A stretch of 60,620 nt of DNA, the filler included. It is 4 parts of 4 records of this genome, joined end to end, with 100 filler letters (N's around TTAATTAATTAA, not from the genome) between each part and the next. Parts side by side here need not be neighbours in the genome. Positions count along the whole stretch, not along the records: positions 1 to 19,375 come from SRR31156797_13240; 3 more parts are not named here. One strand, given 5' to 3'. The position numbers were made by a program, and so were the translations under genes. The notes beneath the pieces were generated by a model. That model searched no databases and was not told the origin of the DNA. It saw only the letters and a list, made by a program, of their open reading frames with translations. Below are positions 28-37,023 of this stretch, in pieces (position 1 is the stretch's first letter; each line of letters starts with the position of its first letter).

Positions 28-73
28 TTTCTTCCTAAACTTAGTGACTTAGGTCACTTCGGAAGAGGCGGTC

Positions 74-1166: not shown

Positions 1167-1996
1167 AACCCTTCCAAATTTTTCCTTAATTCACGCAGGA
1201 TTTGTTTTGTTCCTGGACGTAAGCCGCGCCATAGCATAAAGCTTTCGGCAGCCTGACCCACTAACATTCCCAATCCATCGTAGGCGTGTGCACAACCATT
1301 TTCTAATGCCCAATGATTGAAGATGGTTAATCCTTTTCCATACATCATATCGTACGCAACACTATTAGAAGCAAAGATAGTCGGTGAAACCGCAGGCAGC
1401 TCTCCACCTAAGCTTGCAGACGTTGAGTTTATGATGACATCAAACTCACGGTTGATTTCACTCATCGATAAAGCATCAACATTGCCTAAATGTTGAAAAG
1501 ATTCCGCTAGCTGCTCTGCTTTACTAAAAGTACGGTTGGTGACCGTAATACTCGCCGGCTCTTTATCTAATAGAGGCTTCATTACTCCTCTTGCAGCACC
1601 ACCAGCACCAATTAGAAGAATTTTCGCTCCTTTTAACGGCACCTGATACTGCATCAGATCTTGCACTAAGCCTTCACCATCAGTGTTATCACCCAGAATT
1701 TCACCATCATCGAGTTTCTTTAAAGTATTCACAGCCCCCGCTAGCTGTGCTCTCTCTGTTAAGCGGTCAGCAAACTGATAAGCATCTTCTTTAAAAGGAA
1801 CGGTAATATTGCACCCTCGCCCGCCATGAGCGAAAAAGTCTTTTGCCGCAGCAACAAAACCATCAACTGGCGCTAACTGAGCGGTATAGTCCATCGTTTG
1901 ATTTGTTTGACGGGCAAAAAGAGTATGAATAAAGGGTGATTTACTGTGTCCGATGGGATTACCAAATACAGCGTAGTGATCCGTAAGAAAGTCCAT
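1163..1996 (-). CDS. aroE: shikimate dehydrogenase
   Basis: [28 protein letters not shown] and GAGGAA motifs. Confidence 0.97.
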
Positions 1997-2015
1997 ATCC
2001 TTGCCTCTGGGGAAA

Positions 2016-2062
2016 TAAAAAAGGGTCGCATGCCCGTTGCATCAACAGCATTTAACGACCCT
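2016..2062 (-). terminator. probable intrinsic terminator between hemF and aroE
   Basis: Minus strand AGGGTCG...CGACCCT stem with an inner ATGC-GTTG/CAAC-GCAT helix, followed by a T run. Confidence 0.55.
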
Positions 2063-2082
2063 ATCATTCAGTACAATTTCTG

Positions 2083-3006
<924 letters not shown>

Positions 3007-3043
3007 CTATCGTATTTCTATCGCATTCCCATCGCAGAGTGAG

Positions 3044-3601
3044 TTAGCCCTGTCTTAATATTTGTAGAGTTCGTGCATCACGAATTTCACTTGGTTTATT
3101 ACGACCACCTGTTACGCCACGTAAAATGGCAACGAGTTTGTCACCAAGCTGTTGTTCGACTTCTTCCGTCGTCATGCAAGAGGGTTGTCCCGTCAAGTTA
3201 GCGCTGGTTGAAGTCAGTGGTTTACCGTATGCATTACACAATTGCTGCACTAAAGGGTGGTCGGTAACACGAACAGCAATACTATCAAACTGACCGCTGA
3301 CCCATTGAGACACTTTATTACTAGCAGGTACAACCCAAGTTACTGGGCCAGGCCACGTCGCTTTAATTTGTCGTAGCTGTTCTTCTGTAAGCTGACTTTC
3401 ATCGATATAAGGAAGCAACTGTTCATACGAAGCCGCGATCAGGATTAAACCTTTCTCTACTGGTCGCTGTTTCAACTGAAGCAGCTTCTCAATAGCTTCA
3501 GGATTGTCAGGGTCGCAACCGACACCAAATACACCTTCAGTCGGGTAAGCAATCACCTCTCCAGACTGTAAAGCATGTAAAGTTTGTTCAAAATTATTCA
3601 C
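3044..3601 (-). CDS. tsaC: L-threonylcarbamoyladenylate synthase
   Basis: [20 protein letters not shown] and STSAN motifs; GTG start. Confidence 0.95.
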
Positions 3602-3740
3602 GGAAACTTCCTAAGTTGAGCTGACAAGCATTTTGAGGTTACTTGGGTAACTATTGCTATTTGCGCTAAGTTTACAAATTATCCAGTGTGACAGCTAAAG
3701 TTAATTCATCATAAATTATGTCTTAACGTTACCCAGAGCT

Positions 3741-3778
3741 GCGCAAACGTTTGCTTGTGATAAAAATCCTCGTATAAT
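3741..3778 (+). promoter_or_regulatory. PurR box overlapping the purEK promoter
   Basis: GCGCAAACGTTTGCTT (3741-3756) resembles the PurR operator and overlaps TTGCTT-16-TATAAT. Confidence 0.8.
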
Positions 3779-3841
3779 GCGCGACGTTCGCTCACGTAAT
3801 TGTTCGTTATCGTAATAAAAAGACGCTTGAAGGAGTTTGAG

Positions 3842-4327
3842 ATGAAAGTCGGTATTATCATGGGTTCCAAATCTGACTGGCCAACGATGAAGCTTGCAGC
3901 AGAAATGCTGGATCAATTTGGTGTTCCTTATGAAACTAAAGTAGTTTCAGCACACCGTACCCCTCAACTTCTTGCTGATTACGCAACCAGCGCTAAAGAA
4001 CGTGGACTGAAAGTTATCATTGCTGGTGCCGGTGGTGCAGCTCATTTGCCAGGCATGACCGCAGCATTCACCAGCCTTCCAGTATTAGGTGTTCCTGTGC
4101 AATCTCGTGCTCTTTCGGGCGTTGATTCGCTGTACTCCATCGTTCAAATGCCAAAAGGGATTGCTGTTGGCACCCTAGCCATTGGTGAAGCTGGTGCGGC
4201 TAACGCGGGTATTCTGGCGGCGCAAATCATCGGCACTTTTGATGAAGAAGTGATGGCAAAAGTAGAAGCGTTCCGTACGACTCAAACTGAAACCGTATTG
4301 GCAAACCCAAATCCAGCTGAGGAATAA
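3842..4327 (+). CDS. purE: N5-CAIR mutase
   Basis: [14 protein letters not shown] and [12 protein letters not shown] motifs; start moved to the ATG after AGGAG. Confidence 0.97.
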
Positions 4328-4330
4328 TCC

Positions 4331-5464
4331 ATGCACGTATTGGTATTAGGTTCCGGTCAGCTTGCACGCATGATGTCACTGGCTGGCGCTCCACTTAATA
4401 TTGAGATTTCTGCATTTGATGTGAACAGCAAAAACGTCGTTCACCCTTTAACTCAAGCGGTTATCGGTCATGGCTTAGAGCAAGCGATTGAGAATGCAGA
4501 TGTGATTACGGCGGAGTTTGAACACATTCCTCACGATGTTCTCGATATATGTGAACGTAGTGGAAAGTTCCTGCCAAGCACGGATTCCATCAAAGCCGGT
4601 GGCGATCGCCGTATTGAAAAAGCTTTGTTGGATACAGCGGGTGTTCGCAACGCAAAATACACTGTTATTAATAGTCGTGAAGACCTCGACACTGCCATTG
4701 CCCATGTCGGTATTCCAATGGTATTGAAAAGTGCCTTGGGCGGTTATGACGGCAAAGGCCAATGGCGCCTGAAGAAAGCTGAAGATGCCGATACTATCTG
4801 GCCTGAAATGGCAGAGTGTCTAGCAGCTTCAGACAATCAAGCGATAGTGGCTGAAGAGTTTGTTCCATTTGATCGCGAAGTATCATTGGTGGGTGCTCGT
4901 GGCAAAAATGGTGAAGTCGCGGTTTACCCACTGGCTGAAAATGTCCATGTGAATGGAGTTCTGAGCCTATCAACAGCCATTGACGCACCAGAGCTGCAAG
5001 AACAAGCGAAAGAGATGTTCACCGCGGTAGCAAATAGCTTGAATTACGTCGGTGTACTGGCGCTAGAGTTTTTTGATGTACAAGGCAAACTGCTGGTCAA
5101 CGAAATTGCTCCTCGCGTACATAACTCAGGCCACTGGACTCAACAAGGTGCGGAAACTTGCCAGTTCGAAAATCATCTTCGCGCCGTTTGTGGTATGCCT
5201 TTAGGTAGCACTAAGCTAGTGCGAGAAACGTCAATGATTAATATTCTTGGCGAAGATTCATTACCGGAAAGCCTGCTAGCAATGGAAGGTTGCCACATTC
5301 ACTGGTACGGAAAAGAAAAACGTCCGGGCAGAAAAATGGGCCACATTAACGTAACGGCAGACTATCACGGTGAACTGGTCCGTAAGCTGTGTGAGCTGGC
5401 TGAAGTATTAGACGCTGATGCATTTCCTGCGGTGCAAGAAGTGGCGAAGCAATTCCAATCATAA
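4331..5464 (+). CDS. purK: N5-CAIR synthase
   Basis: [16 protein letters not shown] and [14 protein letters not shown] motifs. Confidence 0.97.
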
Positions 5465-5482
5465 TTGGAACGGATGAATTAG

Positions 5483-5508
5483 AAACGGCGCTTTAAGCGC
5501 CGTTTTTT
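5483..5508. terminator. bidirectional terminator between purK and yrdD
   Basis: AAACGGCGCT-TTA-AGCGCCGTTT hairpin plus T run, between convergent genes. Confidence 0.8.
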
Positions 5509-6073
5509 ATTGTTCCTGAGTGTGCCCACACTTACGGTCAGCACATTGATGCTTGGTTCCACTGGCCAGTTTCTTTTCGACCAGTAATGGAAAACCACAT
5601 TTCTCACACTTCCCCGAAACTGGCGGCAGATTTACCGCGAACTTACACTTGGGATAGGTATCACAGGCATAAAACGTCTTACCAAAGCGCGTTTTACGCT
5701 CAGCTAAATGGCCTTTGCCACATTCAGGACACGCATAAAGCTGAGTTGGTTTTTCATCTTCTGCCGGAGAATCCTGTGATTCGATATGATGACATTGTGG
5801 GTAAGCACTACAGCCAATAAACATCCCGTATCGACCTTGACGCAGGACTAACTCACTACCGCATTCAGGGCAAGGCACACCCAATTCTTTAACGATATGT
5901 CCATCATTTTGATGTAAAGGCTTGACGTAGTCGCAGCTAGGATATTGCGTACAACCTAAAAACGGGCCGTGCTTGCCATGGCGAAGCTGCAATGCTCCGC
6001 CACATTTAGGACAAGGATCGTTCAGCGCATGTTCATGGGCTGAAAACAACTGATTATCAATTTTACCGCTCAT
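5507..6073 (-). CDS. yrdD: topoisomerase I C4 zinc-ribbon repeat protein
   Basis: Repeated CPxCG...GxFxGCxxYPxC units. Confidence 0.88.
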   Translation of the reverse strand: MSGKIDNQLFSAHEHALNDPCPKCGGALQLRHGKHGPFLGCTQYPSCDYVKPLHQNDGHIVKELGVPCPECGSELVLRQGRYGMFIGCSAYPQCHHIESQDSPAEDEKPTQLYACPECGKGHLAERKTRFGKTFYACDTYPKCKFAVNLPPVSGKCEKCGFPLLVEKKLASGTKHQCADRKCGHTQEQ

Positions 6074-6077
6074 ACGA

Positions 6078-6554
6078 TTAATGCAGAATACCTTGCTCTT
6101 TGCTGTACAAAAGCTCTTCCATTAGCGTATAAGCGTTCTCATTCCCGGGAACATTGAATAACACCATTAGAATGATCCACTTAAGGTCATCCAACTCTAA
6201 CTCGTGGGTTTCTAACCCCATGACTCGGTCCATAACCATTTCACGAGTTTCTGTTGTTAACACCTTGATTTGTTCCAGAAATAGGATAAAACCGCGAGAC
6301 TCTATATTCAGACGTTCCATCTCTTGCGCTGTAAAAATACGCATCGATGTTGACGCACTGGTCGAAATTGCTGACTTCGCGTCAGTCTGTTGCAATGCCG
6401 CTAACTCTTCTAACCAGTTAAGGGCCTTATAGATGTCTTTTTGGTGAAACCCTGCTCGAAGCAATTCATCTTCAAGCTCATCTTGATCTACTTGCAACTC
6501 TGCATCGCTATGGATATAAGTTTCAAATAGATACATCAGAATATCCATCATCAT
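6078..6554 (-). CDS. smg: Smg / DUF494 protein
   Basis: [10 protein letters not shown] and [14 protein letters not shown]; downstream of dprA. Confidence 0.93.
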
Positions 6555-6556
6555 AG

Positions 6557-7672
6557 CTAGCCCCTCCCCTTACGAATATAGCCACCGGAAACTGCAACAA
6601 CATGTCCTGAAAGCTCAAGCTCTAGGAGCTGCATCATGACTTCTTGGACAGGTATATGGGTCCTGTTTGCAAGAATATCAACTGGTGTAGCTTCTTCTCC
6701 TACGTTAGCTAACAGCTCAGGAAATGGCAATTCTTCTTCGCTATTTGGAGGTAAAAAAAGTGAATGCTGAGAATTTTCTTGGTAACTTTTGGTAAAGTCG
6801 AGCATCGATTCAACTTCATCAAGAATATGTTGAACGTCCTGAACTAAACAGGCTCCTTGCCGAATCAACCGGTTACTACCAATACAATTGGGATTTAAAA
6901 TCGAACCGGGAACCACAAATACTTCTCTATCCTGCTCTGTGGCGTAGCGAGCAGTAATTAGAGAACCGCTTTTTTCAGCTGCTTCGACAATCAAAACGCC
7001 GATTGATAAGCCGCTAATGATTCGATTGCGCCGCGGAAAGTACGTGGGTCTGGGTTTAGCATTAGGACGAAACTCAGAAACCAAAGCACCACTATCACAA
7101 ATTCTTGCTGCAAGGCTCTTATGTCTCGCAGGATAAATTGATGACAAACCCGATCCTAATACCGCAACGGTTTTTCCTCCGCCTGTTAAAGCGCCATCGT
7201 GGGCATAGCCGTCAATCCCTAACGCCAAACCACTCGTCACTACCAAATCGTTTTCTACTAATTGGTGAGCAAACTGCGAGGCGATTTTAAGGCTATCAAT
7301 ACTGGCATTACGGCTGCCAACAATCGCGATCTGCGGTTGTTGGATAGATTCCAATTGCCCTTGGACGAAAAGGACACTGGGGGCTGAAGAAATTTGCTTA
7401 AGAAGTGGAGGATAGGTTTCACTGGCGGACGTCACGATATGGCGTTGGTTATCTCCACTAAGCCAATTGAGAGATTCTTCTACATCTCTTTCTGCGTCAT
7501 GCACTAAGTAATGAATTTGCTCTGAACTGAAACCAAGCGCTTGCCATTGGTTCGGGGAATATTGAGCCAAATTGGTGATCGAATCGAGACTTAGAAGGCG
7601 TTGTAGTTTCTTATGACCTAACTTAGGGGTGAAACTCAATGTTAACCATGCAGAAAGTGCTTTTTCATCCAT
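6557..7672 (-). CDS. dprA: DNA-processing protein DprA
   Basis: [28 protein letters not shown] and SGSLITA motifs. Confidence 0.96.
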
Positions 7673-7688
7673 GCCAGCGACTCAATAT

Positions 7689-8753
7689 CTAAAAGTGAGA
7701 GAGAGGGGAAACTGCAATCGCATTAGTCGCTATCGCCGAGGGACTGCGAGTGATCAGCGCTAAGCTAAAATGAGAATAAGGCCGAATGACCATTAACTCA
7801 CCCACGTTTTCATCCGGCAGTTGCACAGCTTCATCAAACCACGATTCTTCGTATCGCAAATGACCAGATCGCCCAAAGACAAAATGGCCATCCTGTTTAA
7901 TACTCAACATACTGCCCTGCTTGAGACCATCTTCAACGCCTCTATCTAAAATCACAATCTGGTTTTGTGCGACCAGCTCCGAGCCCTGTAAAGAACCTAA
8001 TATTTGGGCTTCAACGTTTTCTGGAGAGGGATGTGGATTAAAGGTTGTGGTCAAGTTGAGAGTATTTGTATCGAGAATCGGAAGAACAAGGTCATTGAGC
8101 ATAATTTCTTGTCGCTGCTCTTGGACATGGAGTTCCGATATCTCTTCTGCGGAATAAACGAGTTCTCCGGTTGCGATCAAACGCAATACCGCAATCGATC
8201 TGCTTCTACTTTTAAACTGGTGCGACAACCTATAAACACCCCACTTAAGATGAGAATGCTGCCCTGAAAAATACAGTTTATCGAGCCCCGTCATGTACTG
8301 ACGCCCTTCGTCGTTACCCACAACGCGACTACTAATTTCGACGTCTGCGAGATCTATCAATCGGTCCGATTGTAAATACGGAATTACTAAGCCTAGCTCA
8401 ACGGTGGGTAAAGGCTGTTTGGGGATTTGTTTTGCCTGAGGTTTTAACGTGATGACCGATTTGGATTTCAGTTTGGGTTGACCATTTCGCCACACAAGAT
8501 GAATGCGATCGCCGGGATAGATCCGGTGCGGATTATCAATGTTCGAGTTGATATCCCATAGCTGAGGCCATAACCAAGAGTCATTAAGGTACATGGCGGA
8601 AATATCCCACAAAGTATCGCCTTCAACCACAATGTAAGTCGTTGGTGCATTGTCCTTTAATACTAAGCGAGAAGATTGCTGAGCAGTTACGGGAAAAGTA
8701 GTCGCATTTAACGCCAAAATCAGTAAAAAAGAGTAACCTTTCCATCTCGCCAT
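7689..8753 (-). CDS. LysM peptidoglycan-binding protein (TsaP-like)
   Basis: Signal peptide, then LysM YIVVEGDTLWDIS...WPQLW..N..IDNPHRIYPG; start set at the ATG after GAGG. Confidence 0.85.
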   Translation of the reverse strand: MARWKGYSFLLILALNATTFPVTAQQSSRLVLKDNAPTTYIVVEGDTLWDISAMYLNDSWLWPQLWDINSNIDNPHRIYPGDRIHLVWRNGQPKLKSKSVITLKPQAKQIPKQPLPTVELGLVIPYLQSDRLIDLADVEISSRVVGNDEGRQYMTGLDKLYFSGQHSHLKWGVYRLSHQFKSRSRSIAVLRLIATGELVYSAEEISELHVQEQRQEIMLNDLVLPILDTNTLNLTTTFNPHPSPENVEAQILGSLQGSELVAQNQIVILDRGVEDGLKQGSMLSIKQDGHFVFGRSGHLRYEESWFDEAVQLPDENVGELMVIRPYSHFSLALITRSPSAIATNAIAVSPLSHF

Positions 8754-8890
8754 AACCTCATATCCTGCGTTAAATGAATGAGAATGATTTTGATAAATCT
8801 CGATGGATGCTGTCATTTGACTCATAAAATGTCTAGAATTGACCCAACAAGCTTTATCCCGTTTCGGCCAAGTTCAATATTCGAGTGTAT

Positions 8891-9400
8891 ATGTCTGTAT
8901 TACAAGTATTAACATTCCCAGATGACCGCCTTCGTACAGTTGCGAAGCCAGTTGAAAAAGTGACACCAGAGATCCAAACCATCGTCGATAACATGATTGA
9001 TACCATGTACGACGAAGAAGGTATTGGTCTTGCTGCTACGCAAGTAGACATCCACCAGCGTATCGTCGTTATCGACATCTCTGATAGTCGTGATGAACCA
9101 ATGGTATTAATCAATCCAGAAATCATCGAAAAGCGCGGTGAAGACGGTATTGAGGAAGGCTGTCTATCAGTACCAGGTGCTCGCGCTCTAGTGCCACGAG
9201 CTGCCGAAGTGACGGTAAAAGCACTGAATCGCGAAGGTGAAGAGTACACATTTGAAGCTGATGACCTATTGGCAATTTGTGTTCAACACGAATTAGACCA
9301 CCTAGAAGGTAAGTTGTTTGTTGACTATCTTTCGCCGCTAAAACGCAAGCGTATTAAAGATAAGCTAGAAAAAATCAAACGCTTCAACGAAAAGAACTAA
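8891..9400 (+). CDS. def: peptide deformylase
   Basis: [13 protein letters not shown] and QHELDH motifs. Confidence 0.98.
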
Positions 9401-9422
9401 TAAAGATTATAGAGAGGTTACC

Positions 9423-10370
9423 TTGAGCCAATCATTACGTATTGTCTTTGCAGGTACTCCGGACTTCGCCGCCCGTCATCTGGCGGCGTTGTTGTCTTCG
9501 GAGCACGAAGTTATTGCGGTTTACACGCAACCAGATCGCCCAGCCGGTCGTGGTAAGAAGCTGACTGCCAGCCCAGTAAAAACATTAGCCCTTGAGCATG
9601 ATGTTCCGGTTTATCAACCAGAAAACTTTAAATCAGATGAAGCAAAACAAGCGCTTGCTGATCTGAACGCTGATCTGATGGTTGTGGTGGCTTACGGCTT
9701 ACTATTACCTCAAGCGGTATTAGATACGCCTAAGCTTGGTTGTATCAATGTACACGGTTCTATCCTGCCACGCTGGCGCGGCGCAGCTCCAATTCAACGC
9801 TCTATTTGGGCAGGCGATCCGGAAACGGGTGTTACCATCATGCAGATGGATATCGGCCTGGATACAGGTGACATGCTGAAAATCGCCACGCTACCAATTG
9901 AAGCAACAGATACTAGTGCATCGATGTACGAGAAACTGGCAGAGCTCGGTCCACAAGCACTGGTTGAATGTATTTCAGATATCGCTAGCGGTACCGCCGT
10001 TGCTGAAAAGCAAAATGACGAACTGGCCAACTACGCGAAAAAACTCAGCAAAGAAGAAGCTCGTATTAACTGGAATGACGATGCTGCCCACATCGAACGT
10101 TGTGTTCGTGCTTTCAATCCATGGCCGATGAGCCATTTTGAAGCGGCAGAAAACAGCATTAAAGTCTGGCAAAGCCGTGTTGTGGATCAAAGCAGTGATA
10201 AACCTGCTGGCACCATAATACAAGCAGACAAAACCGGTATTTATATCGCAACAGGTAATGGCGTATTAGCGTTAGAACAACTTCAGGTACCTGGCAAAAA
10301 GGCTATGCCAGTACAAGATATTCTTAACTCCAGAGCGAGTTGGTTTGAAGTTGGCACGCAACTAAGCTAA
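9423..10370 (+). CDS. fmt: methionyl-tRNA formyltransferase
   Basis: FAGTPDFA and [16 protein letters not shown] motifs; TTG start. Confidence 0.98.
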
Positions 10371-10441
10371 TTAGTCATCAATTAAGTCAGTACATTAACT
10401 TAGGGACAGAGATGTCCCTATTGAATTTTAAGGGTTACACC

Positions 10442-11722
10442 ATGAATGTTCGCGCAGCAGCTGCCAACGTCCTGTTCCAAGTGGTCGACAAAGGTCATTC
10501 ACTTTCCCACGCTCTTCCCGCAGCTCAGAAAACCATTCGCCCAAGAGATCACGCTCTACTGCAAGAAATTTGCTATGGCGCTCTACGCTATTTACCTCGT
10601 TTAGAATCTATCGCCAATGAGTTGATGGATAACCCTCTAAAAGGTAAAAAGCGTGTTTTCCACCACCTGATTCTAGTCGGAATTTATCAACTTAGCTTCA
10701 TGCGTATTCCATCGCATGCAGCGGTAGCCGATACTGTAGAAGGAACGAAAACACTTCGTGGAGAAAGTCTAAGTGGATTGATCAACGCAGTGCTGCGAAA
10801 TTACCTACGTAATCAGGAAGAGCTCGATCAAATCGCGGTCAGCCATAACGCAGGTAAATATGGTCACCCGAGTTGGATTCTGAAGATGCTTCAGGAAAGC
10901 TATCCGGAGGAATGGGAAGCCATTATTGAGGCAAACAACAGTAAGGCTCCCATGTGGTTACGAGTAAACCGTCACCATCACACTCGTGATGAATATCAGC
11001 TATTACTGGATGAAGCTGAAATTGAATACACCATTCACCCTGAAGCCGCTGACGCAATAAGACTCAACGCTCCTTGTGATGTTACCTTGTTGCCTGGATT
11101 TGAAAAAGGTTGGGTGTCGGTTCAAGACGCTGCCGCTCAGTTGGCAATTGATTACCTTAAGCCACAAGAAGGTGAACTCATCTTAGATTGTTGCGCTGCT
11201 CCGGGTGGTAAAACCGCACATATCTTAGAGCACACTGAAGATACCGAAGTGGTAGCGCTAGACAGCGATGCAACGCGCCTGAACCGAGTACATGACAACC
11301 TAGAACGCTTACACCTAAAGGCAGATGTGATCTGCGGTGATGCACGTTACCCACAAGAGTGGTGGCAAGGTGATCAATTTGATCGTATTTTGCTTGATGC
11401 GCCATGTTCAGCAACTGGGGTTATTCGTCGTCATCCTGATATAAAATGGTTACGCCGCGCTAACGACATTGAAGCTTTGGCAGAGTTACAGCGCGAAATT
11501 TTGCAGGTAATGTGGCAACAATTAAAGCCTGGTGGTACGTTAGTTTACGCAACATGTTCAATTACGCCTCAAGAAAACGTTCTACAAGTCAAAGACTTCT
11601 TGGCTCGTACTGAAGATGCGCAACTGATTGATTCAGATCCAGAGCAACCTGGTCGTCAAATTCTTCCAGGTGAGCAAGATATGGATGGCTTCTACTACGC
11701 GGTTATGGTTAAAAAAGCGTAA
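10442..11722 (+). CDS. rsmB: 16S rRNA m5C967 methyltransferase
   Basis: NusB-like N-terminus, [18 protein letters not shown] and YATCS motifs. Confidence 0.96.
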
Positions 11723-11781
11723 GTAATTGAATCAAAGGCAGCCAAGTGCTGCCTTTGACTTTAAATAATAAGAGAACAGGT

Positions 11782-13158
11782 ATGAAAATCATCATTCTTG
11801 GTGCGGGGCAAGTGGGTGGCACATTAGCCGAGAACTTGGTTGGCGAAAACAACGATATTACTGTCGTCGACAAAAACAGCGACCGCCTCAGAGAACTGCA
11901 AGATAAATATGATTTGCGAGTGGTCAATGGGCATGCTAGCCACCCTGACGTATTACGTGAAGCAGGTGCGCAAGACGCTGACATGTTAGTTGCAGTGACA
12001 AACACTGACGAAACCAATATGACCGCTTGTCAGGTTGCATTTACTCTATTCAATACTCCTAACCGTATTGCTCGTATTCGTTCACCTCAGTATCTTGCTG
12101 AAAAAGAAGCCCTATTCCAGTCAGGTGCCGTTCCTGTCGATCACCTGATCGCCCCTGAAGAATTGGTTACTAGCTATATTGAACGCTTGGTTCAATATCC
12201 GGGCGCACTGCAAGTGGTCAGTTTTGCAGATGAAAAGGTCAGCTTAGTTGCAGTAAAAGCCTATTACGGTGGTCCGCTTGTGGGTAATGCCCTTTCAGCG
12301 CTGCGTGATCACATGCCGCACATTGATACTCGTGTTGCCGCAATTTTCCGTCAGGGCCGACCGATTCGCCCTCAAGGAACCACAATAATTGAAGCCGATG
12401 ATGAAGTTTTCTTCGTCGCAGCAAGTAACCACATTCGCTCCATCATGAGTGAGCTGCAACGCCTTGAAAAACCTTACCGTCGTATCATGATCGTCGGTGG
12501 TGGTAATATCGGTGCCAGCTTAGCGAAACGTCTGGAACACTCATACAGCGTGAAACTTATCGAGCGTAACTATCAACGCGCTGAGCGCCTTTCGGAAGAG
12601 CTAGAAAACAGTATCGTTTTCTGTGGTGACGCCGCAGACCAAGAACTACTGACCGAAGAAAACATCGACCAAGTAGATGTCTTTATCGCGCTAACCAACG
12701 AAGATGAAACCAACATCATGTCTGCGATGCTGGCAAAACGTCTTGGTGCGAAAAAGGTGATGGTACTGATTCAGCGTGGTGCCTATGTTGATTTGGTTCA
12801 GGGTGGTGTGATTGATGTAGCTATTTCTCCACAGCAAGCAACCATTTCGGCACTGTTAACGCACGTTCGCCGTGCTGATATTGTCAACGTATCGTCTCTG
12901 CGTCGTGGTGCTGCAGAAGCGATCGAGGCGATTGCTCATGGTGATGAAACCACATCGAAAGTAGTTGGTCGTGCTGTTAGTGATATCAAACTGCCACCGG
13001 GTGCCACCATTGGTGCCATCGTTCGTGGTGAAGAAGTCCTGATAGCGCATGATAGAACCGTGATTGAACAGGATGACCACGTTGTGATGTTCCTTGTGAA
13101 TAAGAAATATGTACCAGACGTCGAAGCGTTGTTCCAACCAAGTCCATTCTTCTTATAA
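11782..13158 (+). CDS. trkA: Trk potassium uptake NAD-binding subunit
   Basis: [12 protein letters not shown] start, a second GGGNIG RCK motif and FQPSPFFL end. Confidence 0.97.
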
Positions 13159-13173
13159 GGTTCTGGCGTCGTT

Positions 13174-14619
13174 ATGCTCAATTTACGCCCCATCCTATTT
13201 GTAATAGGGCTAGTACTTTCCAAGCTAGCCCTATTCATGTACGTACCAACAATCGTTGCCTTTGTGACTGGTACGGGTGGCTTTCTCGACTTTGCACAGG
13301 CCGTGATTATTACCCATATTGCGGCTTTCATATGCCTTACGTTAGGGCGAACATCGAATTTTCGTCTTAACGTGAGGGATATGTTCCTCATCACCAGCTT
13401 GGTATGGACCATCGCCAGTGCGTTTGCCGCGTTGCCGTTTGTGTTCATCAACCACATCAGTTTCACCGACGCCTATTTTGAAACCATGTCAGGCCTGACA
13501 ACAACGGGCTCAACCGTGCTTAGTGGGTTGGATACCATGGCACCAAGCATCCTGCTTTGGCGTTCAATCTTACAGTGGTTAGGCGGGGTCGGGTTTATTG
13601 TAATGGCGGTAGCCGTTCTACCCATGCTTAACGTGGGTGGTATGAAGTTGTTCCAAACGGAATCTTCCGATTGGTCAGATAAAAGCAGCCCACGAGCGAA
13701 AACGGTGGCGAAAAACATCGTTATTGTCTATCTGGTTTTAACTCTGCTGTGCATCATAGGCTACATGCTGACAGGAATGGGGCTATTTGATGCGATAAAT
13801 CATGCATTTACCACGCTATCAACAGGGGGTTACTCCACTTCCGATAGTTCAATGAACAAATTCTCTAATGGCGCGCATTGGGTAGCAACACTATTCATGT
13901 TCTTAGGCGGATTACCGTTCTTGCTGTTTGTGGCGACGATAAGAAAGCGCAGCCCAAAAGTGTTGCTCAAAGATGCTCAGGTACAGGGCTTCTTTATCCT
14001 CTTCATTGCAGCAAGCTTAGTCATCGCTATCTGGTTAAACATCCATAACAGTTATCCGATTATGGATGCACTGCGCGTTTCAATGTTCAATATCGTATCT
14101 GTAGTCACGACAACGGGTTACGGATTGGATGACTTTACGGCTTGGGGAGCACTGCCAACCACACTGTTTGGCTTTATAATGATGGTCGGTGCCTGTTCAG
14201 GTTCAACCGCTGGTGGGATTAAAATCTTCCGTTTCCAGATCTGTTTTGCCCTGCTAAAAAACCAAATGATGCGCCTAATCCACCCTCAAGGGGTATTTGT
14301 CCAACGCTATAACCAACGCCCAGTAAACGAAGATATCGTCCGTTCAGTGGTCGCCTTTGGCCTCACATTTGCTATCACCATCATATTGATAGCAGGCTGT
14401 CTTGCGGCTATGGGACTTGATCCGGTGACGAGTATTTCAGGCTCAATCACTGCTGTTGCAAACGTAGGTCCGGGCATGGGCAACGTGATTGGTCCAACCG
14501 GTAATTTTGCCCCATTACCAGATGCTGCGAAATGGGTACTGAGTTTTGGCATGCTTATGGGACGACTAGAGATTTTGACGATTCTGGTGCTCTTTTTCCC
14601 CGCCTTCTGGAGACGCTAA
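13174..14619 (+). CDS. trkH: Trk potassium uptake membrane subunit
   Basis: Four pore loops (TTTGST, STGGYS, TTTGYG, NVGPG) and GRLE near the C-terminus. Confidence 0.95.
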   Translation: MLNLRPILFVIGLVLSKLALFMYVPTIVAFVTGTGGFLDFAQAVIITHIAAFICLTLGRTSNFRLNVRDMFLITSLVWTIASAFAALPFVFINHISFTDAYFETMSGLTTTGSTVLSGLDTMAPSILLWRSILQWLGGVGFIVMAVAVLPMLNVGGMKLFQTESSDWSDKSSPRAKTVAKNIVIVYLVLTLLCIIGYMLTGMGLFDAINHAFTTLSTGGYSTSDSSMNKFSNGAHWVATLFMFLGGLPFLLFVATIRKRSPKVLLKDAQVQGFFILFIAASLVIAIWLNIHNSYPIMDALRVSMFNIVSVVTTTGYGLDDFTAWGALPTTLFGFIMMVGACSGSTAGGIKIFRFQICFALLKNQMMRLIHPQGVFVQRYNQRPVNEDIVRSVVAFGLTFAITIILIAGCLAAMGLDPVTSISGSITAVANVGPGMGNVIGPTGNFAPLPDAAKWVLSFGMLMGRLEILTILVLFFPAFWRR

Positions 14620-14621
14620 CC

Positions 14622-15176
14622 ATGAAAATATTTCGCCTTATGCTGCTAACGGCTTTATCAGTATTAACAACAAATGTACTCGCCAGTGAGATAGTTCAAC
14701 TGGAAGATGGGCGAAGCATTCAGTTAAATGACGACTTTACTTGGCAATATGTAGAGTCGGCTAATTCGAAAGCAGGCGAGAAAGTTCCTGTCATCGCAGC
14801 TCCAATCGTCACAGCAAAAGCAGGGACAACACTGATCATTGGTAGCAACAAACCCAGCTTAAAACTTTCCGACTCCGGTGTGGAGATGGTTTTAGGCTCA
14901 GCTCAGTACGCAGATGGCAAAGTCATTATACCAACAGCGATTACCAACCAAAGCTCTCAACCCGTCATTAGCATTGTACTTAATATAGAATTGCTGGATG
15001 AAAATGGACACAGTCTCGCTACACAGAGCAGTACGATTTGGCAGTCAATTAAACGTATGGCAGAAACTTACTTACGCCCGAAAACAGCAGCAGAAGGTAA
15101 GGCTATTGAAATCGAAGCGCCTGAAGCAGACCGCTATCAAATTCTGGTGACGCTTGAAAATCTGGAAACGCGTTAA
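14622..15176 (+). CDS. exported DUF3157-like protein
   Basis: Signal peptide followed by VQLEDGRSIQLNDDFTWQYV. Confidence 0.7.
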   Translation: MKIFRLMLLTALSVLTTNVLASEIVQLEDGRSIQLNDDFTWQYVESANSKAGEKVPVIAAPIVTAKAGTTLIIGSNKPSLKLSDSGVEMVLGSAQYADGKVIIPTAITNQSSQPVISIVLNIELLDENGHSLATQSSTIWQSIKRMAETYLRPKTAAEGKAIEIEAPEADRYQILVTLENLETR

Positions 15177-15179
15177 TCC

Positions 15180-15824
15180 CTAAATTGGCTGCACATACAG
15201 ATAAATAGCCAGAAAGTGGCAGGCGCATCCAGCTAAAACAAACCCATGCCAAATAGCATGATTATACGGAATGCGTTTCGCCACATAGAAAATAGTCCCT
15301 AGCGAATACACCACACCACCAGCAGCAAGCAAGGTTAACCCACCAACATCCAAATTCAGGGCTAATTGATAGATCACTATCAGAGACAACCACCCCATTG
15401 CCAGATATGAGATAAGAGAAAAGCGTTTGAAACGATAAACAAAGGCTAATTTCATAATGATGCCCAGTAAAGCTATCGACCAAATCACAGCCATAAGTCC
15501 AAATGCCAATGGCGTGCGTAAGCCAACCAATAAGAAAGGTGTGTAACTTCCGGCGATGAGGAGATAGATCGCACAGTGGTCAAAGGTTTTTAACCAGCGT
15601 TTGGCTCTCTGATGAGGGATCGCATGATAAAGAGTAGAAGCAAGAAACAGAGCAATCATACTGCCACCATAAACACTCATACTGACAATAGTCAGGCTAT
15701 CAGCACTATGATCGACAGCTTTGATAAGCAGTAACACCAAACCTACAATACCAAGAACTAAGCCAATACCATGGCTAATGGCATTCGCCATTTCTTCCTT
15801 AAAACTGTACTCACTAGCTGACAT
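15180..15824 (-). CDS. hemolysin III / PAQR family membrane protein (YqfA/TrhA-like)
   Basis: [30 protein letters not shown] and HAIWH motifs. Confidence 0.92.
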
Positions 15825-15917
15825 ACTCAACCTATCATAATGATCAACGATGGCGACTAGTATGACACAATTGAGCGTACAGTTGTAAGCTCAATTTGTT
15901 AATTTTAAGTTAAGGCA

Positions 15918-16709
15918 TTAAGAGTGAGAATCGAGATACTGTAATATCTTTTGTCCAGCCGCTTGTGGCGACTCATCACTTTCAATGGTCATATGACGCT
16001 TTAGCTCACTTAAACCAAGAAAGCTCGACAGCATACCACTGACTCCACGCTGATGACGGTCAATATCAAACCACATTTGTAACGATGCCTCGTCACGATA
16101 GGCGATAATTTCGAGTTCACGCCAACGACCATGAAAAGGGCCAGTGGTTGGCACAAACTCAAACTCCTGAACGAAAGGCAACTTAAAACCCTTAGCCGCT
16201 TCGCATTCAACTTGACGTAAACGCAGCCCCTGCTCTTCTAGCTCAGAGAAAATACCATCCATTAATGGATCCGGACGTACGGTCAGAATATCTTTATCGG
16301 TTGGGTCAAGTGCCATAGCGATATCAAGCCCAGTTTCAAGCCAAACTTTGGCATCACCAATGGTGATAGGCGTATTCCACGGCACATCAAGTTCGACATC
16401 AAAGTCACGAGTCTCACCGGGTTGAATAGTAAATGCATAAGGTAGTGACCAATCTGCTAAAACGTAAGTCCGGGGCTCTTTACGTTTGCGATGGCTATCA
16501 GGCTTATCTCTATTTTCAGCCACTTCTTCGATGTAACGACAACACAGCTTCAGTTCTATGTTATCAATATTCTGAGCACTCGAGCCGCCATAAACATGAA
16601 TCGTAAACTTGACTGGCTGACCAGGGTACAGCACTTCTTGCTGGAGAACTGAATCCACTTTTGCAGAGCCAATCCCGAAGCTGGCGAGGGTTTTCTTGAG
16701 AAATGACAT
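15918..16709 (-). CDS. Spo0M family protein
   Basis: LASFGIGSAKVD, VWLETGLDI..ALDPTDKD and PFVQEFEFVP; GGAGG RBS before ATG 16709. Confidence 0.85.
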   Translation of the reverse strand: MSFLKKTLASFGIGSAKVDSVLQQEVLYPGQPVKFTIHVYGGSSAQNIDNIELKLCCRYIEEVAENRDKPDSHRKRKEPRTYVLADWSLPYAFTIQPGETRDFDVELDVPWNTPITIGDAKVWLETGLDIAMALDPTDKDILTVRPDPLMDGIFSELEEQGLRLRQVECEAAKGFKLPFVQEFEFVPTTGPFHGRWRELEIIAYRDEASLQMWFDIDRHQRGVSGMLSSFLGLSELKRHMTIESDESPQAAGQKILQYLDSHS

Positions 16710-16829
16710 AGACACCTCCATTGATGAGTCACCAGTGTAAAGCGGAATGAATTCAAAACTCAATAGCTATACTTGGGTATACAATCACACAACAGGTTGA
16801 TTTTTTTTATAACATTCATTGGTTAACTA

Positions 16830-16858
16830 TCGACCATTTGCAAACTAGATGCTAATCT
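16830..16858 (+). promoter_or_regulatory. putative extended -10 (RpoS-like) promoter
   Basis: TCGACC-17 bp-TAATCT, with TG at -15/-14 and C at -13. Confidence 0.45.
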
Positions 16859-16864
16859 AACTTT

Positions 16865-17041
16865 GATATGAATTAGTATCGTTACTCCTAGACAATTAAG
16901 TGGATTGGCGATTGCCAGAAGGAGCCATCCTTCATACACCTCGGTGCCCCTGAAGAGCAGCTCATAGTTGCCTAGGTCCATTACATCGGCAATGGATATG
17001 CCTGACTGTTAGGTAAATGAATGCGCCCAACAACTGTCAGG
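16865..17041 (+). ncRNA. putative structured cis-regulatory leader RNA (family not recognised)
   Basis: Closing helix 16887-16896/16967-16976 encloses four small hairpins; then a TCCATT/AATGGA hairpin and a CCTGAC/GTCAGG hairpin over the RBS and start. Confidence 0.5.
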
Positions 17042-17188
17042 TTTTCGCACACGAACCGTAGTGCTATGCGTCGTCGCACAGGCTTTGCTGCTGCTCCGGT
17101 TGCGAAAAAACTTGCTCCTGCAAAAACTCTTGTTGAGACAAATGCACTAACTGCATCGCCCGAGACAAAAGTCAGCCAGGCTGCTTAA
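17021..17188 (+). CDS. unannotated 55-aa basic Ala/Arg/Thr-rich small protein
   Basis: MRPTTVRFSHTNRSAMRRRTGFAAAPVAKKLAPAKTLVETNALTASPETKVSQAA; AGGT RBS 6 nt upstream; stop directly followed by a terminator; below the ORF track's length cut-off. Confidence 0.65.
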   Translation: MRPTTVRFSHTNRSAMRRRTGFAAAPVAKKLAPAKTLVETNALTASPETKVSQAA

Positions 17189-17191
17189 TAG

Positions 17192-17224
17192 AAAAGCGTA
17201 GTGAAAACTACGCTTTTTTCTTTT
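17192..17224 (+). terminator. intrinsic terminator after the small ORF
   Basis: AAAAGCGTAGT-GAAA-ACTACGCTTTT followed by T runs. Confidence 0.85.
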
Positions 17225-17293
17225 CTACTCTTTCCTACATTTGATACCTTTAGCTTACTAAAATAAAACCATTGTAAAGTTGTGGAGAAAGCT

Positions 17294-17569
17294 ATGACTA
17301 TGAAGTGTCACCGTATTGAAGAATTGCTGGAACTGCTCGAGCCAGAATGGCAAAAAGATTCAGACTGTAATTTACTGCAGTTCATCGTGAAATTAGCGGC
17401 TGAAGCCGGATACAAAGGTGATTTGGCAGAACTGACCGATGATGTTCTTATCTATCACCTAAAAATGCGTAATAGCAGCAAAGATGAAGTTATCCCTGGA
17501 ATCAAAAAAGATTACGAAGACGATTTCAAAACCGCACTATTGCGTGCTCGTGGCGTGATTAAAGATTAA
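17294..17569 (+). CDS. yihD: YihD / DUF1040 family protein
   Basis: [26 protein letters not shown] and [11 protein letters not shown]. Confidence 0.92.
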
Positions 17570-17584
17570 ACCGCAAACGCATTT

Positions 17585-17613
17585 AAAAGAGCGACTTTTC
17601 AGTCGCTCTTTTT
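17585..17613 (+). terminator. intrinsic terminator after yihD
   Basis: AAAAGAGCGACT-TTTC-AGTCGCTCTTTT. Confidence 0.8.
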
Positions 17614-17803
17614 GCTGTAATGTGCATGTAAAAAATAATTTGTTGTTAAAGATTGATTGCCTTAAAGAAATGAAAATGTTGTTGACGTTATAATCGCCAA
17701 CCTAAAACTAATAATCATCCTTCTTTGCCGGTCATGGAAGGGGAAGCAATGTCGAAGAGTACAGTCACAAGAAACTGTACCAACAAGCCCAAAGGAATAG
17801 TTA

Positions 17804-19228
17804 ATGAGTCAGGATAAGATAGACATCAAAGATGTGACTCCAAAAGTTTTTAACCCCAAAACCCATAAAGGGCAAGGTGGAGACAGATTCAATCCGAGCA
17901 AGGGTATCTATGTTCGTGAGAGCAAAGGTACCTACCAAAAACTGCGCCGCTATGGTGGTTGGTTCCTGCTACTCCTCTTCGGTTTAGTTCCTTGGATCTC
18001 TTTCGGTGACCGCCAAGCGATCCTATTAGATATTGGAAACCAACAATTCAACTTTTTTGGCACCACACTTTATCCGCAAGATTTAACATTGCTTGCACTC
18101 CTGTTTATGATTGCCGCTTTTGGATTGTTCTTCCTCACCACCTTTTTAGGTCGAGTATGGTGTGGCTACCTCTGTCCTCAGACCGTATGGACCTTCATGT
18201 ACATCTGGTTTGAAGAAAAACTGGAAGGCAGTGCCAACAAACGTCGCAAACAAGACTCCGGCAAAATGACCGCTAAGCTAGCGATACGTAAAACCTTAAA
18301 GCACCTTGCTTGGTTTGCTATTGCGTTAATCACCGGTTTTACCTTTGTCGGCTATTTCGTTCCTGTTCGTGACTTAGTGATCGACTTTTTCACTCTAGAT
18401 GCGACATTCTGGCCAGTTTTCTGGGTCATGTTCTTTGCTATTTGTACCTACGGTAACGCCGGATGGATGCGTTCAATCATGTGTATACACATGTGTCCTT
18501 ATGCGCGCTTCCAGTCAGCCATGTTCGATAAAGATACCTTTATTGTTGGTTACGACACCCAACGTGGTGAACAGCGTGGTCCTCGCTCGCGTAAAGCGGA
18601 TCCAAAAGAGCTGGGGTTAGGTGACTGTATTGATTGTGACTTGTGTGTTCAGGTGTGCCCAACCGGTATCGATATCCGTGATGGTCTGCAATATGAATGT
18701 ATCAACTGCGGCGCTTGTATCGATGCTTGTGATACCACCATGGAGCGTATGGGTTACCAAAAAGGGCTCATAAATTACACCACAGAACATCGCTTGTCGG
18801 GCAAACACACCAAAGTTATGCGACCAAAACTCCTTGGCTATGGTGCCGTATTACTGATCATGTGTGGCTTATTCGTGGCTCAAGTCGCTGCGGTTGACCC
18901 AGCAGGTCTGAGTGTAATTCGTGACCGTAATCAGCTATTTAGAACCAATAGTACTGGCGAGGTAGAGAATACCTATACCCTGAAAGTCATTAACAAAACT
19001 CAGCAAACTCAAGAGTACGTGCTGAATGTCTCTGGACTGAGTGACGTATCTTGGTATGGCAAGCAAACTATCCAAGTAGAGCCCGGTGAAGTACTCAACT
19101 TACCGATGAGCTTAGGTGTAAAACCCGATAGCTTAAGTTCTCCTGTTGCGACAATTCAGTTTATACTCAGCGACGAAACAAACCAATTCACGATAGAAGT
19201 TGAAAGCCGGTTTATCAAAAAGCTTTAA
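17804..19228 (+). CDS. ccoG: cytochrome c oxidase accessory protein CcoG/FixG
   Basis: GRVWCGYLCPQT, CPYARFQ, CIDCDLCVQVCPTGIDIR and CINCGACIDAC motifs. Confidence 0.93.
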   Translation: MSQDKIDIKDVTPKVFNPKTHKGQGGDRFNPSKGIYVRESKGTYQKLRRYGGWFLLLLFGLVPWISFGDRQAILLDIGNQQFNFFGTTLYPQDLTLLALLFMIAAFGLFFLTTFLGRVWCGYLCPQTVWTFMYIWFEEKLEGSANKRRKQDSGKMTAKLAIRKTLKHLAWFAIALITGFTFVGYFVPVRDLVIDFFTLDATFWPVFWVMFFAICTYGNAGWMRSIMCIHMCPYARFQSAMFDKDTFIVGYDTQRGEQRGPRSRKADPKELGLGDCIDCDLCVQVCPTGIDIRDGLQYECINCGACIDACDTTMERMGYQKGLINYTTEHRLSGKHTKVMRPKLLGYGAVLLIMCGLFVAQVAAVDPAGLSVIRDRNQLFRTNSTGEVENTYTLKVINKTQQTQEYVLNVSGLSDVSWYGKQTIQVEPGEVLNLPMSLGVKPDSLSSPVATIQFILSDETNQFTIEVESRFIKKL

Positions 19229-19246
19229 ACTTCATCATAAGAAAGG

Positions 19247-19273
19247 AAAAGGGCTCAGTAATGAGCCCTTTTT
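19247..19273 (+). terminator. intrinsic terminator after ccoG
   Basis: AAAAGGGCTCA-GTAA-TGAGCCCTTTTT. Confidence 0.75.
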
Positions 19274-19278
19274 AATCA

Positions 19279-19375
19279 ATGACTCAAGCAACCTTTCACT
19301 TTGACGCTTTAACACCAGACCTAATGTGGTATGCATTAGAAAGTATTGGGGTTAGAGCCGAATCCGGTTTCCTTG
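19279..19375 (+). CDS. srkA: Ser/Thr kinase SrkA/RdoA, N-terminal fragment (contig end)
   Basis: MTQATFHFDALTPDLMWYALESIGVRAESGFL resembles the YihE/RdoA N-terminus; near yihD. Confidence 0.8.
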
Positions 19376-36138: not shown

Positions 36139-37023
36139 ATGAAAGCCGGATTTATCGGACTTGGCGTTATGGGACACGGCATGGCGCTCAATCTCATCAA
36201 GGCCGGTCATGCGTTATCGGTGTGCGATCTCGATTCTGAAAAGGTCAAAATTCTGGTCGACGCCGGAGCACGCGACGGCGGAACGCCATCCGGCGTGGCG
36301 GACGGTGCCGAGGTGGTCGTGATATCGGCGCCCGATACGGCCGATGTCGAGGCCATCTTGTTCGGTGCCGACGGCATCGCGGCCGTTGCCAAGGCCGGTG
36401 CGGTCGTTATCGATTGCAGTTCGATCTCGGCGACGGCGACCCGGGAATTCGCGACACGACTCGCCGAATCCGGGATCGACCTGTTGGACGCGCCGGTCAG
36501 CGGCGGCGCCAAGGGGGCTGCCGACGGCACGCTGTCGATGATGATCGGCGGCGACGCGGCCGCCATCGAACGGGCCCGTCCGGTGCTCGAAGCCATGGGC
36601 AAGAAGCTGAAACATATCGGCCCCAGCGGCGCCGGACAGGTCGCCAAGGCCTGCAATCAGCTGGTCATCGCCGGCACCATGATGGCCTGCGCCGAGATGG
36701 TCGCCCTGTGCCGCAAGATGGAGATCGATCCGGCGCCGGTGCGCGAGGCCCTGCTGGAAGGCGCCGCCCGAAGCTTCGTCCTGGAAAACCATGCGCAAAA
36801 AATGATCGACGAGAACTTCGCGCCGGGTTTCCGGGCCCGGTTGATGTTGAAGGACCTGAAATTGGCGACGACGGCGGCAAGCAACGTCGGCGGCTTCATG
36901 CCGATGACCGGGCTGGTCGCACAGATGATGCAAGCGGTTTGCAACAGCGGCCGGGCCGATCTCGATCATTCATCGTTGGGTGCCCTGGTCCAGGACATGT
37001 GGACGGAAGGCGACGAGACCTGA
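36139..37023 (+). CDS. NAD(P)-dependent beta-hydroxyacid dehydrogenase (GarR/GlxR-like)
   Basis: GFIGLGVMG, DAPVSGG, GQVAKACNQ and FAPGF...MLKDL motifs. Confidence 0.88.
   Translation: MKAGFIGLGVMGHGMALNLIKAGHALSVCDLDSEKVKILVDAGARDGGTPSGVADGAEVVVISAPDTADVEAILFGADGIAAVAKAGAVVIDCSSISATATREFATRLAESGIDLLDAPVSGGAKGAADGTLSMMIGGDAAAIERARPVLEAMGKKLKHIGPSGAGQVAKACNQLVIAGTMMACAEMVALCRKMEIDPAPVREALLEGAARSFVLENHAQKMIDENFAPGFRARLMLKDLKLATTAASNVGGFMPMTGLVAQMMQAVCNSGRADLDHSSLGALVQDMWTEGDET

Follow-up and report, generated by a model that had tools for sequence, protein, structure and literature searches.

In mRNAs such as rpoS, acted on by the small RNAs (sRNAs) DsrA/RprA, and ymdA, acted on by CsrA, a stable helix closes the ribosome-binding site (RBS), and binding of an sRNA or protein to one arm opens it. 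Two further groups of known systems invite comparison: the Hfq-bound transcripts of about 300-350 nucleotides (nt) that encode a small protein, such as VcdRP of Vibrio cholerae, Spot 42/SpfP and SgrS/SgrT, and orphan riboswitch candidates of the yjdF type, in which a conserved multi-stem leader occurs almost only ahead of one gene family of unassigned function. Here we examine a 356-nt unit within a joined stretch of DNA of 60,620 nt (the window), in the part taken from SRR31156797_13240 (positions 1 to 19,375). It is a complete small transcription unit on the plus strand, between a divergent Spo0M-family gene and yihD, and consists of an extended -10 promoter, a leader of about 155 nt, a 55-codon open reading frame (ORF) and a terminator, all of them where an initial annotation of the window had placed them.

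The unit is like the rpoS and ymdA leaders in its proposed working, with no sequence or structural homology to them, and the 3' arm of its sequestering helix lies within the coding region. It is like VcdRP, Spot 42/SpfP and SgrS/SgrT in being an Hfq-bound transcript of similar size that encodes a small protein, judging from its probable V. cholerae orthologue VC0038, and it has a folded start region as reported for spfP and ryhP. It differs from these dual-function RNAs in that its peptide is unrelated and longer (55 amino acids (aa) against 15-43) and in that ORF and leader fill the whole RNA. Compared with the yjdF-type candidates, the leader is narrowly distributed (one family), and some lineages have lost its junction but retain the remainder. 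On present evidence the unit is thus an uncharacterised example of two known kinds, an RBS-sequestering structured leader and an Hfq-bound small-protein mRNA, and not a new kind of system. The initial annotation had called it undescribed, which is true in part: VC0038 is annotated as hypothetical, and the region upstream of it was listed in 2010 as candidate regulatory 5' untranslated region no. 59 (Livny and Waldor 2010, PMC2836559), while no description of the RNA structure, its function or the protein was found in the literature searched, including the accessible parts of the VcdRP paper and of a 2026 V. parahaemolyticus transcriptome preprint, whose supplements may list the unit.

Our data support reading the region as a transcription unit of its own, in which a structured leader conserved among relatives precedes a genuine microprotein gene. 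Beyond this, we consider it reasonably likely that the unit is an independently transcribed, Vibrionaceae-specific small-protein gene orthologous to VC0038, which by default is not translated until a factor acting in trans opens it.

Covariation in the leader RNA

We compared the leader (156 nt from the predicted start to the ATG) with its relatives in two alignments, one of 36 sequences made with MAFFT and one of 76 sequences, 72 of them distinct, fitted to a covariance model. The MAFFT alignment has 94.8% of its cells paired and shows two-sided changes at 17 of its 42 pairs; shuffled alignments gave 7.8 +/- 1.5 such pairs, with none of 500 reaching 17, and slid controls gave 6-12. For the 72 distinct leaders, an alignment that leans towards the model to which it was fitted, the paired cells amount to 97.4%, and both partners change at 21 of 37 pairs (shuffles 11.7 +/- 1.5, 0/500 reaching 21; slid controls 5-12). 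The initial annotation had proposed to look among relatives for covariation and for ORF conservation, and both are present.

Most of the covariation signal is carried by P1 (16887-97 with 16966-76), the already proposed helix between CCTAGACAAT and GTTGCCTAGG, which has compensatory changes at 8 of 10 pairs and up to six pair types per position. A 5' hairpin missed earlier, P0, changes on both sides at all seven of its pairs in at least one of the 72 sequences, with 96.6% of cells paired. The TGGC/GCCA helix (P2; 16906-09 with 16914-17) is kept as proposed but is almost invariant. Other helices of the first model did not hold up: GAAGGA/TCCTTC and GAG-cag-CTC are unconserved, and in relatives GAG 16922-24 is paired with CTC 16961-63 instead, enclosing a stem whose length and sequence vary (P3), a fold found in 36/36 sequences. 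The CAC/GTG helix is present but specific to the window's lineage, and TCCATT/AATGGA shows no covariation, two of its pairs being broken in 14 and 18 of the 72 sequences. The unpaired GGA in the junction and the GGC.A.GGA in the linker are each at least 97% conserved, as are other junction bases. The linker GGCA can pair with TGCC at 16999-17002, putting GGA 16994-96 in a loop; this helix is 97.2% paired and shows no covariation.

The first model had also missed P5, the helix that sequesters the Shine-Dalgarno sequence (UAGGU, or GAGAU in an Aliivibrio-like group). Its 5' arm, GCCTGAC.GTT.GGT (17000-14), pairs with codons 2-7 (17025-42), so that the start codon falls within a loop of 10 nt; the helix is imperfect, with a conserved internal loop and a bulge. 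Across the 72 sequences 97.5-99.6% of its cells are paired, and the non-coding 5' arm is nearly invariant. Three compensatory pairs occur, all in an Aliivibrio-like clade of 8-9 sequences, and in one of them a synonymous CGC-to-CGU change matches a G-to-A change in the Shine-Dalgarno arm. In silico, the folding energy of P5 alone is -14.0 kcal/mol at 37 C; at 50 C it is -9.8, and the Shine-Dalgarno bases have a predicted unpaired probability of 0.25-0.29 from 15 to 50 C. For 31 of the 72 leaders, the fold with both P1 and P5 comes to within 0.5 kcal/mol of the predicted minimum.

Rfam was searched as the initial annotation had suggested. Scanning 16700-17320 against Rfam 15 at E up to 10 returned nine chance or terminator-like matches only, the best with 18.9 bits against a gathering score of 50.

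A small-protein gene with its own transcription signals

Homologues of the peptide were sought in 80 yihD-anchored loci, 46 from Vibrionaceae (44 Vibrio, 1 Photobacterium and 1 Grimontia) and 34 from other families. In 43 of the 46 Vibrionaceae loci yihD is preceded, on the same strand, by a full-length homologue, and split matches occur in two more (L017 and L042); a Photobacterium SKA34 protein (P0090) is also among the family members listed. The 34 loci of other families gave no tblastn match below E = 1, and the enterobacterial yihD genes have no such unit. Among distinct members, 57 of 76 are exactly 55 aa long, differences in length are whole codons, and most variation falls at third-codon positions. 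The ratio of nonsynonymous to synonymous substitution rates (dN/dS) has a median of 0.25 in frame, and in the two shifted frames the medians are 0.95 and 1.66; the comparison took in 2211 pairs drawn from 67 distinct 168-nt ORFs. The value is 0.23 over codons 2-27 and 0.34 over codons 28-55, and stops occur in each shifted frame in 66 of the 67 ORFs. These comparisons show a true gene, with purifying selection acting on the peptide from end to end. A further ORF at ATGGAT (16993), upstream of this gene, was rejected: the U of its AUG differs in 14 of 72 sequences and single-base insertions shift its frame.

The conserved core of the peptide is N-terminal (MRPxxVR[FY]..(N)RS..RRR..F..AP), and 65 of the 76 distinct members end in Ala-Ala. 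In the codon comparison these last two positions never change as amino acids, and all four Ala codons are used for them. A C-terminal Ala-Ala is an SsrA-like degron for ClpXP, and its conservation suggests ClpXP turnover of the peptide. The window peptide has a net charge of +8 and, as had been stated, no transmembrane stretch, with at most five hydrophobic or small residues (A, G, I, L, M, F, V, W, C) in a row; a type I toxin or membrane microprotein would be expected to have such a stretch. AlphaFold2 with a 76-row alignment gave a low-confidence coil and two short helices (predicted local distance difference test score 66, predicted template modelling score 0.16), and the peptide is predicted to be disordered. 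It belongs to no Pfam or NCBIfam family. A profile search of the PDB gave best E-values of 0.29 and 0.89, taken as chance, and the ESM Atlas returned unnamed clusters only, with recognition below a useful level. Searching 1.84 billion representatives with a profile yielded 34 proteins at E <= 0.001, of which 33 are 39-83 aa long, and all 22 short matches whose sequences were examined belong to the peptide family; the remaining 299-aa repeat protein was judged spurious, having matched only profile positions 13-38. Named records among the members listed are all 'hypothetical' or 'uncharacterized' and come from Vibrio, Aliivibrio, Photobacterium and Enterovibrio. Binding of nucleic acid or the ribosome by the peptide would be a guess.

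The start of the coding region is also constrained at the nucleotide level. Codons 6-7 (GTC AGG) show no synonymous change in 35/35 sequences. We also observed that codons 6-11 (17036-17050; GTC AGG TTT TCG CAC) are nearly without synonymous change, with TCG in 30 of 31 Ser codons. Since this synonymous freeze extends beyond the 3' arm of P5, constraint on the RNA reaches past that helix.

Signals for independent transcription are also kept. The motif TGnTAnnnT is present in 68/68 distinct upstream sequences, the -10 hexamer ends in CT in 65 of them, and C precedes the hexamer in 39. A hexamer ending in CT and a preceding C are traits of sigma-S-preferred promoters. A simple sigma-70 scan of the window did not list the extended -10 promoter, from which transcription would start near 16865. 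At the other end, the GC core of the terminator (GCGCAG/CUGCGC) is conserved and begins 6-11 nt (median 7) past the stop codon in 28/28 loci, with a median stem energy of -10 kcal/mol; the conserved GC hairpin followed by a U tract gives the unit an sRNA-like 3' end. In L002, L003 and L005, the closest named relatives, a long inner hairpin is inserted in the terminator stem just past the ORF stop (in L005 a 36-nt stem-loop of -16.3 kcal/mol), and the window and L001 carry the short form. A repeated ATCGA(T/C) word (for example ATCGATTAnATATCGAyC) was seen at 16800-16840, upstream of and across the -35 element, and at the equivalent position in L055, L078, L084, L086, L108 and L113. It is common to the divergent spo0M and small-ORF promoters and may be a transcription-factor site.

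RNA runs were viewed as Logan contigs, which carry neither transcript ends nor strand. A 249-nt metatranscriptome contig (X4) matches 16887-17135 with zero differences, and contigs of two other runs cover 16700-17102 (X1) and 16700-17039 (X2), running through the promoter and into spo0M. No reads of the raw-read run X18 were placed on the unit. The contigs record presence in RNA libraries rather than a transcript.

The probable V. cholerae orthologue, VC0038

Gene size and order point to VC0038 of V. cholerae N16961 as the orthologue of the window ORF. VC0038 is complement(36527..36694), 168 nt, and VC0037 is complement(36152..36430) (PMC7148568), in the order VC0036 FixG-like, VC0037 hypothetical, VC0038 hypothetical, VC0039 SpoOM-like and VC0040 hemolysin (PMC7858070). 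VC0038 thus equals the window ORF in length (168 nt including the stop codon), and its neighbours match those of the window: hemolysin/HlyIII, SpoOM-like, a yihD-sized gene of 279 nt (VC0037) and FixG-like. The gap to the next gene is 96 nt in V. cholerae versus 105 nt in the window.

The VC0038 mRNA was enriched by co-immunoprecipitation with Hfq, 3.71-fold at an optical density of 0.2 and 24.9-fold at 2.0 (Huber 2020, PMC7148568, Table S2). In ligation- and sequencing-based mapping of RNA interactions (RIL-seq) at low cell density, the VC0038 coding sequence formed 398 chimeras with MicV, a sigma-E sRNA, at a false discovery rate of 5e-271, with mean fragment coordinates of 36645-36688 and extremes of 36503-36846; of the two rows covered here, out of four that name VC0038, the other has it in second position with the VC2357 coding sequence (41 chimeras), and the authors treat it as a coding sequence and not as an sRNA (Huber 2022, PMC9732341). 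These data fit the protein- or sRNA-binding leader that was among the roles first suggested for this RNA. Taken at their extremes, the fragments require the leader to be no shorter than 152 nt and place the RNA end about 24 nt beyond the stop, in agreement with the start-to-terminator transcript predicted here (156 nt and 31-36 nt). The MicV site falls at about nt 7-50 of the coding region, which by equal ORF length corresponds to window 17027-17070 and takes in the P5 3' arm and the frozen codons 8-11; the synonymously frozen codons thus coincide with the mapped chimera site. An attempt to locate MicV by its seed pattern in three Vibrio genomes gave 62 plain matches, and a promoter-plus-seed pattern fell inside a membrane-protein gene.

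Published RNA sequencing of a csrA mutant gives values for VC0038 of 1.60 (p 0.24), 1.32 (p 0.65) and -2.29 (p 1.4e-4), presumably for early, mid and stationary phase, mutant versus wild type (Butz 2021, PMC7858070). VC0039 reads -2.8 in the column where VC0038 reads -2.29, so the spo0M-like gene and VC0038 change together, and rpoS is down about 7-fold in this mutant (PMC7858070); the effect on VC0038 may be indirect, through RpoS. The neighbouring genes are also represented in the RIL-seq tables: for VC0036, the CcoG orthologue, 7489 chimeras join the sRNA Vcr043 to the very beginning of the coding sequence, and VC0037 has 1494 (PMC9732341). The VC0038-VC0037-VC0036 row is thus heavily engaged with Hfq and sRNAs.

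A model for translational control and its alternatives

We propose that a sigma-70/sigma-S-type extended -10 promoter drives an RNA predicted to start near 16865, whose leader carries P0, the three-way junction P1-P3, the GGA-bearing linker and P5 over the Shine-Dalgarno sequence. The most stable predicted fold closes the RBS, so that translation would be off by default until a trans-acting factor opens or remodels P5. We read the default state as closed, and expect an opener in trans, because P5 is stable (-14 kcal/mol) and temperature-insensitive in the model and the fold with P1 and P5 is near the minimum in 31 of the 72 leaders. The likeliest opener would be Hfq with an sRNA, favoured by the published VC0038 binding data and by the MicV chimeras within the early coding region. 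An alternative opener could be CsrA, suggested by two invariant GGA motifs and by the stationary-phase effect. Leaders bound by CsrA/RsmA have two or more GGA motifs, at least one of them in a hairpin loop, and here GGA occurs at 16902-04 and 16994-96, of which the second can sit in the GGCA/UGCC loop. The product would be a disordered peptide of charge +8 and a short-lived ClpXP substrate through its Ala-Ala end. The tight spacing between stop and terminator and the fixed yihD neighbour suggest an added layer, in which termination may be reduced when a ribosome completes the ORF, so that yihD expression would be tied to that of the ORF.

Several observations weigh against this proposal. P5 is invariant within Vibrio, and its compensatory changes come from one clade in the model-fitted alignment. 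Although the whole unit folds better than its shuffles (z = -4.28; 0/100 as good), the leader alone does not (z = -1.63; 11/200 as good), so the early description of an almost fully paired leader was overstated and the case for structure rests on comparison with relatives. The junction is dispensable in some lineages, which lack it. An X1 contig crosses the promoter into spo0M, so DNA carry-over is possible, and start, translation and regulation in the window organism are predicted from sequence. Orthology with VC0038 is drawn from size and gene order, and no V. cholerae name stands among the 37 and 69 family members listed. The MicV seed CRCUGCUUUU, taken as quoted, has no conserved complement at the chimera site, its best pairing being with the terminal KAA codons or scattered sites. 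The Shine-Dalgarno sequence contains no GGA in either form, unlike typical CsrA-repressed sites. Finally, an alternative 'open' helix is 96% pairable with no covariation beyond shuffles, and the open fold has a median stability 5.7 kcal/mol below that of the closed one.

This open helix is central to a reading of the leader as an orphan riboswitch, in which the junction binds a small molecule: with P1 formed, GCCUGAC would be free to close the Shine-Dalgarno sequence, and with P1 open, UCAGGC would pair with GCCUGA and free the RBS. P1 covaries strongly around invariant unpaired junction bases, as in an aptamer-like fold. P1 and P5 have identical words over their outer 5-6 bases, the P1 3' strand UCAGGC exactly complementing the P5 5' strand GCCUGA; the resulting helix pairs in 96.1% of cells versus 6-42% when slid, and in 71 of the 72 sequences column 131 holds C or U, either of which pairs with G162. 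However, the helix does not covary beyond shuffles and its fold is the weaker one (above), the leader matches no Rfam family, and it occurs in one copy per genome, always ahead of the same gene of unassigned function. Loci of the L128/L080/L025/L017/L042 type, moreover, lose the junction and keep P0, the GGA linker and P5. The metabolite riboswitch offered by the initial annotation is thus quite improbable. The thermosensor that it also offered fares worse: P5 is an imperfect helix that takes in the Shine-Dalgarno sequence together with bases following the start codon and might melt with rising temperature to free the RBS, but by calculation it stays folded from 15 to 50 C, and we consider an RNA thermometer very improbable.

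Two other explanations were considered. The unit could be a translation-coupled attenuator of yihD, all 356 nt serving as the yihD leader: a ribosome at the stop codon would cover the 5' arm of the terminator and allow read-through, the peptide being only translated filler. The position of the terminator stem relative to the stop in 28/28 loci agrees with this, as do the presence of yihD next on the same strand in 50/50 loci chosen independently of yihD, a spacer that is unconserved and in which a simple scan found no sigma-70-like plus-strand promoter (17220-17293), and RIL-seq fragments of VC0037 that extend to 36491, leaving 12 nt to the last of VC0038 at 36503 (PMC9732341). However, purifying selection acts on the peptide throughout, including its Ala-Ala end, for which an ORF serving as mere spacer would have no need; RRR (codons 17-19) is the only codon run and is separated from the terminator by about 35 codons; 41-aa ORFs at rumoiensis-type loci stop about 25 nt before the hairpin; and enterobacterial yihD genes lack the unit. 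We find this attenuator reading unlikely; it is compatible with the small-protein gene proposed above and need not exclude it. Also unlikely is that the Hfq-bound transcript pairs in trans, as a regulator or MicV sponge, besides encoding the peptide. The 24.9-fold Hfq enrichment of VC0038, the sRNA-like 3' end (28/28 loci), codons 8-11 (TTT TCG CAC) with almost no synonymous change past P5, and the second position of VC0038 in the VC2357 row would all suit such a dual-function RNA. The usual place of a target in a RIL-seq chimera, however, is first, and this is where VC0038 stands in its main row as published; its authors class it as a coding sequence, and no target complementarity was found here. 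A wider scheme, in which the three-way junction of a new regulatory RNA class senses a metabolite or protein (for example the peptide itself) and, jointly with Hfq and MicV, controls production of a basic, short-lived peptide acting with its fixed neighbours YihD and CcoG (for example in cbb3 oxidase assembly under envelope or stationary-phase stress), the RNA possibly acting in trans as well, seems fairly unlikely to us.

Distribution and genomic context

The covariance model (R1) has exactly one match in each of 72 of the 151 sampled Vibrionaceae genomes, and in 3 of 5 genomes in a separate scan. Scores fall into groups of about 140-184 bits for Vibrio, 90-117 for Aliivibrio-like and 30-40 for Photobacterium-like leaders, the last of which retain GGA, P2, a short P3, GGC.A.GGA and P5. 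The Vibrio lineages L017, L025, L042, L080 and L128 are without the whole junction (84 model positions in the L128/L080 type) and retain P0, P5 and the GGA linker; the leader of rumoiensis-type loci is simpler. Across these groups the universal core is thus the GGA linker with the sequestering helix.

The coordinates of the unit and its neighbours are collected in Table 1; the gene order in the window is HlyIII, Spo0M, the small-protein unit, yihD and CcoG. At loci found by the RNA model alone yihD lies downstream in 30/30 cases and spo0M upstream in 29/30, and yihD also follows in 20/20 further short loci. The spacer from terminator to yihD is unconserved among Vibrio species and varies from 62 to 156 nt. 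Given that a simple scan found no sigma-70-like promoter in it, yihD may depend partly on read-through. The entire window holds no Rfam family at gathering score, and hence no tRNA, rRNA, riboswitch or sRNA family recognised by that scan.

Table 1. Features of the small-protein unit and adjacent genes (window coordinates)
Feature	Position	Strand	Evidence
Spo0M-family gene	15918-16709	minus	Pfam Spo0M, E = 4.6e-69
Predicted promoter: -35-like TCGACC 16830-35, 17-nt spacer, extended -10 TG-C-TAATCT 16850-58	16830-16858	+	read from sequence
P0 hairpin, 5' end of leader (GATAT...GTATC)	16865-16880	+	covariation
Three-way junction domain: P1, P2, P3 and unpaired GGA 16902-04	16887-16976	+	covariation/conservation
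Conserved linker with GGCAATGGA (16988-96)	16977-16999	+	conservation
P5, Shine-Dalgarno-sequestering helix	17000-17042	+	pairing conservation
Shine-Dalgarno AGGT	17011-14	+	read from sequence
55-codon ORF, start ATG 17021	17021-17188	+	homologues, dN/dS
Intrinsic terminator: stem 17190-17219, then T tract	17190-17224	+	terminator scan
yihD (DUF1040), downstream neighbour	17294-17569	+	Pfam PF06288, E = 7e-45
CcoG gene after yihD	17804-19228		TIGR02745, E = 6.8e-173

Significance

The unit has no Rfam, Pfam or NCBIfam entry, and it illustrates that a gap in an ORF track can conceal a small gene that is annotated elsewhere. V. cholerae tables already show the VC0038 mRNA to be strongly Hfq-bound and partnered with a sigma-E sRNA, and we found no passage examining VC0038 in the parts of those papers available to us. 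The structural model (5' hairpin, junction, GGA linker and sequestering helix) and the Ala-Ala end are features that can be tested directly and cheaply. For the Vibrionaceae, the unit represents a single-copy element whose non-coding bases are more conserved than many proteins and which has been retained in Vibrio, Aliivibrio, Photobacterium, Enterovibrio and Grimontia, pathogen lineages included.

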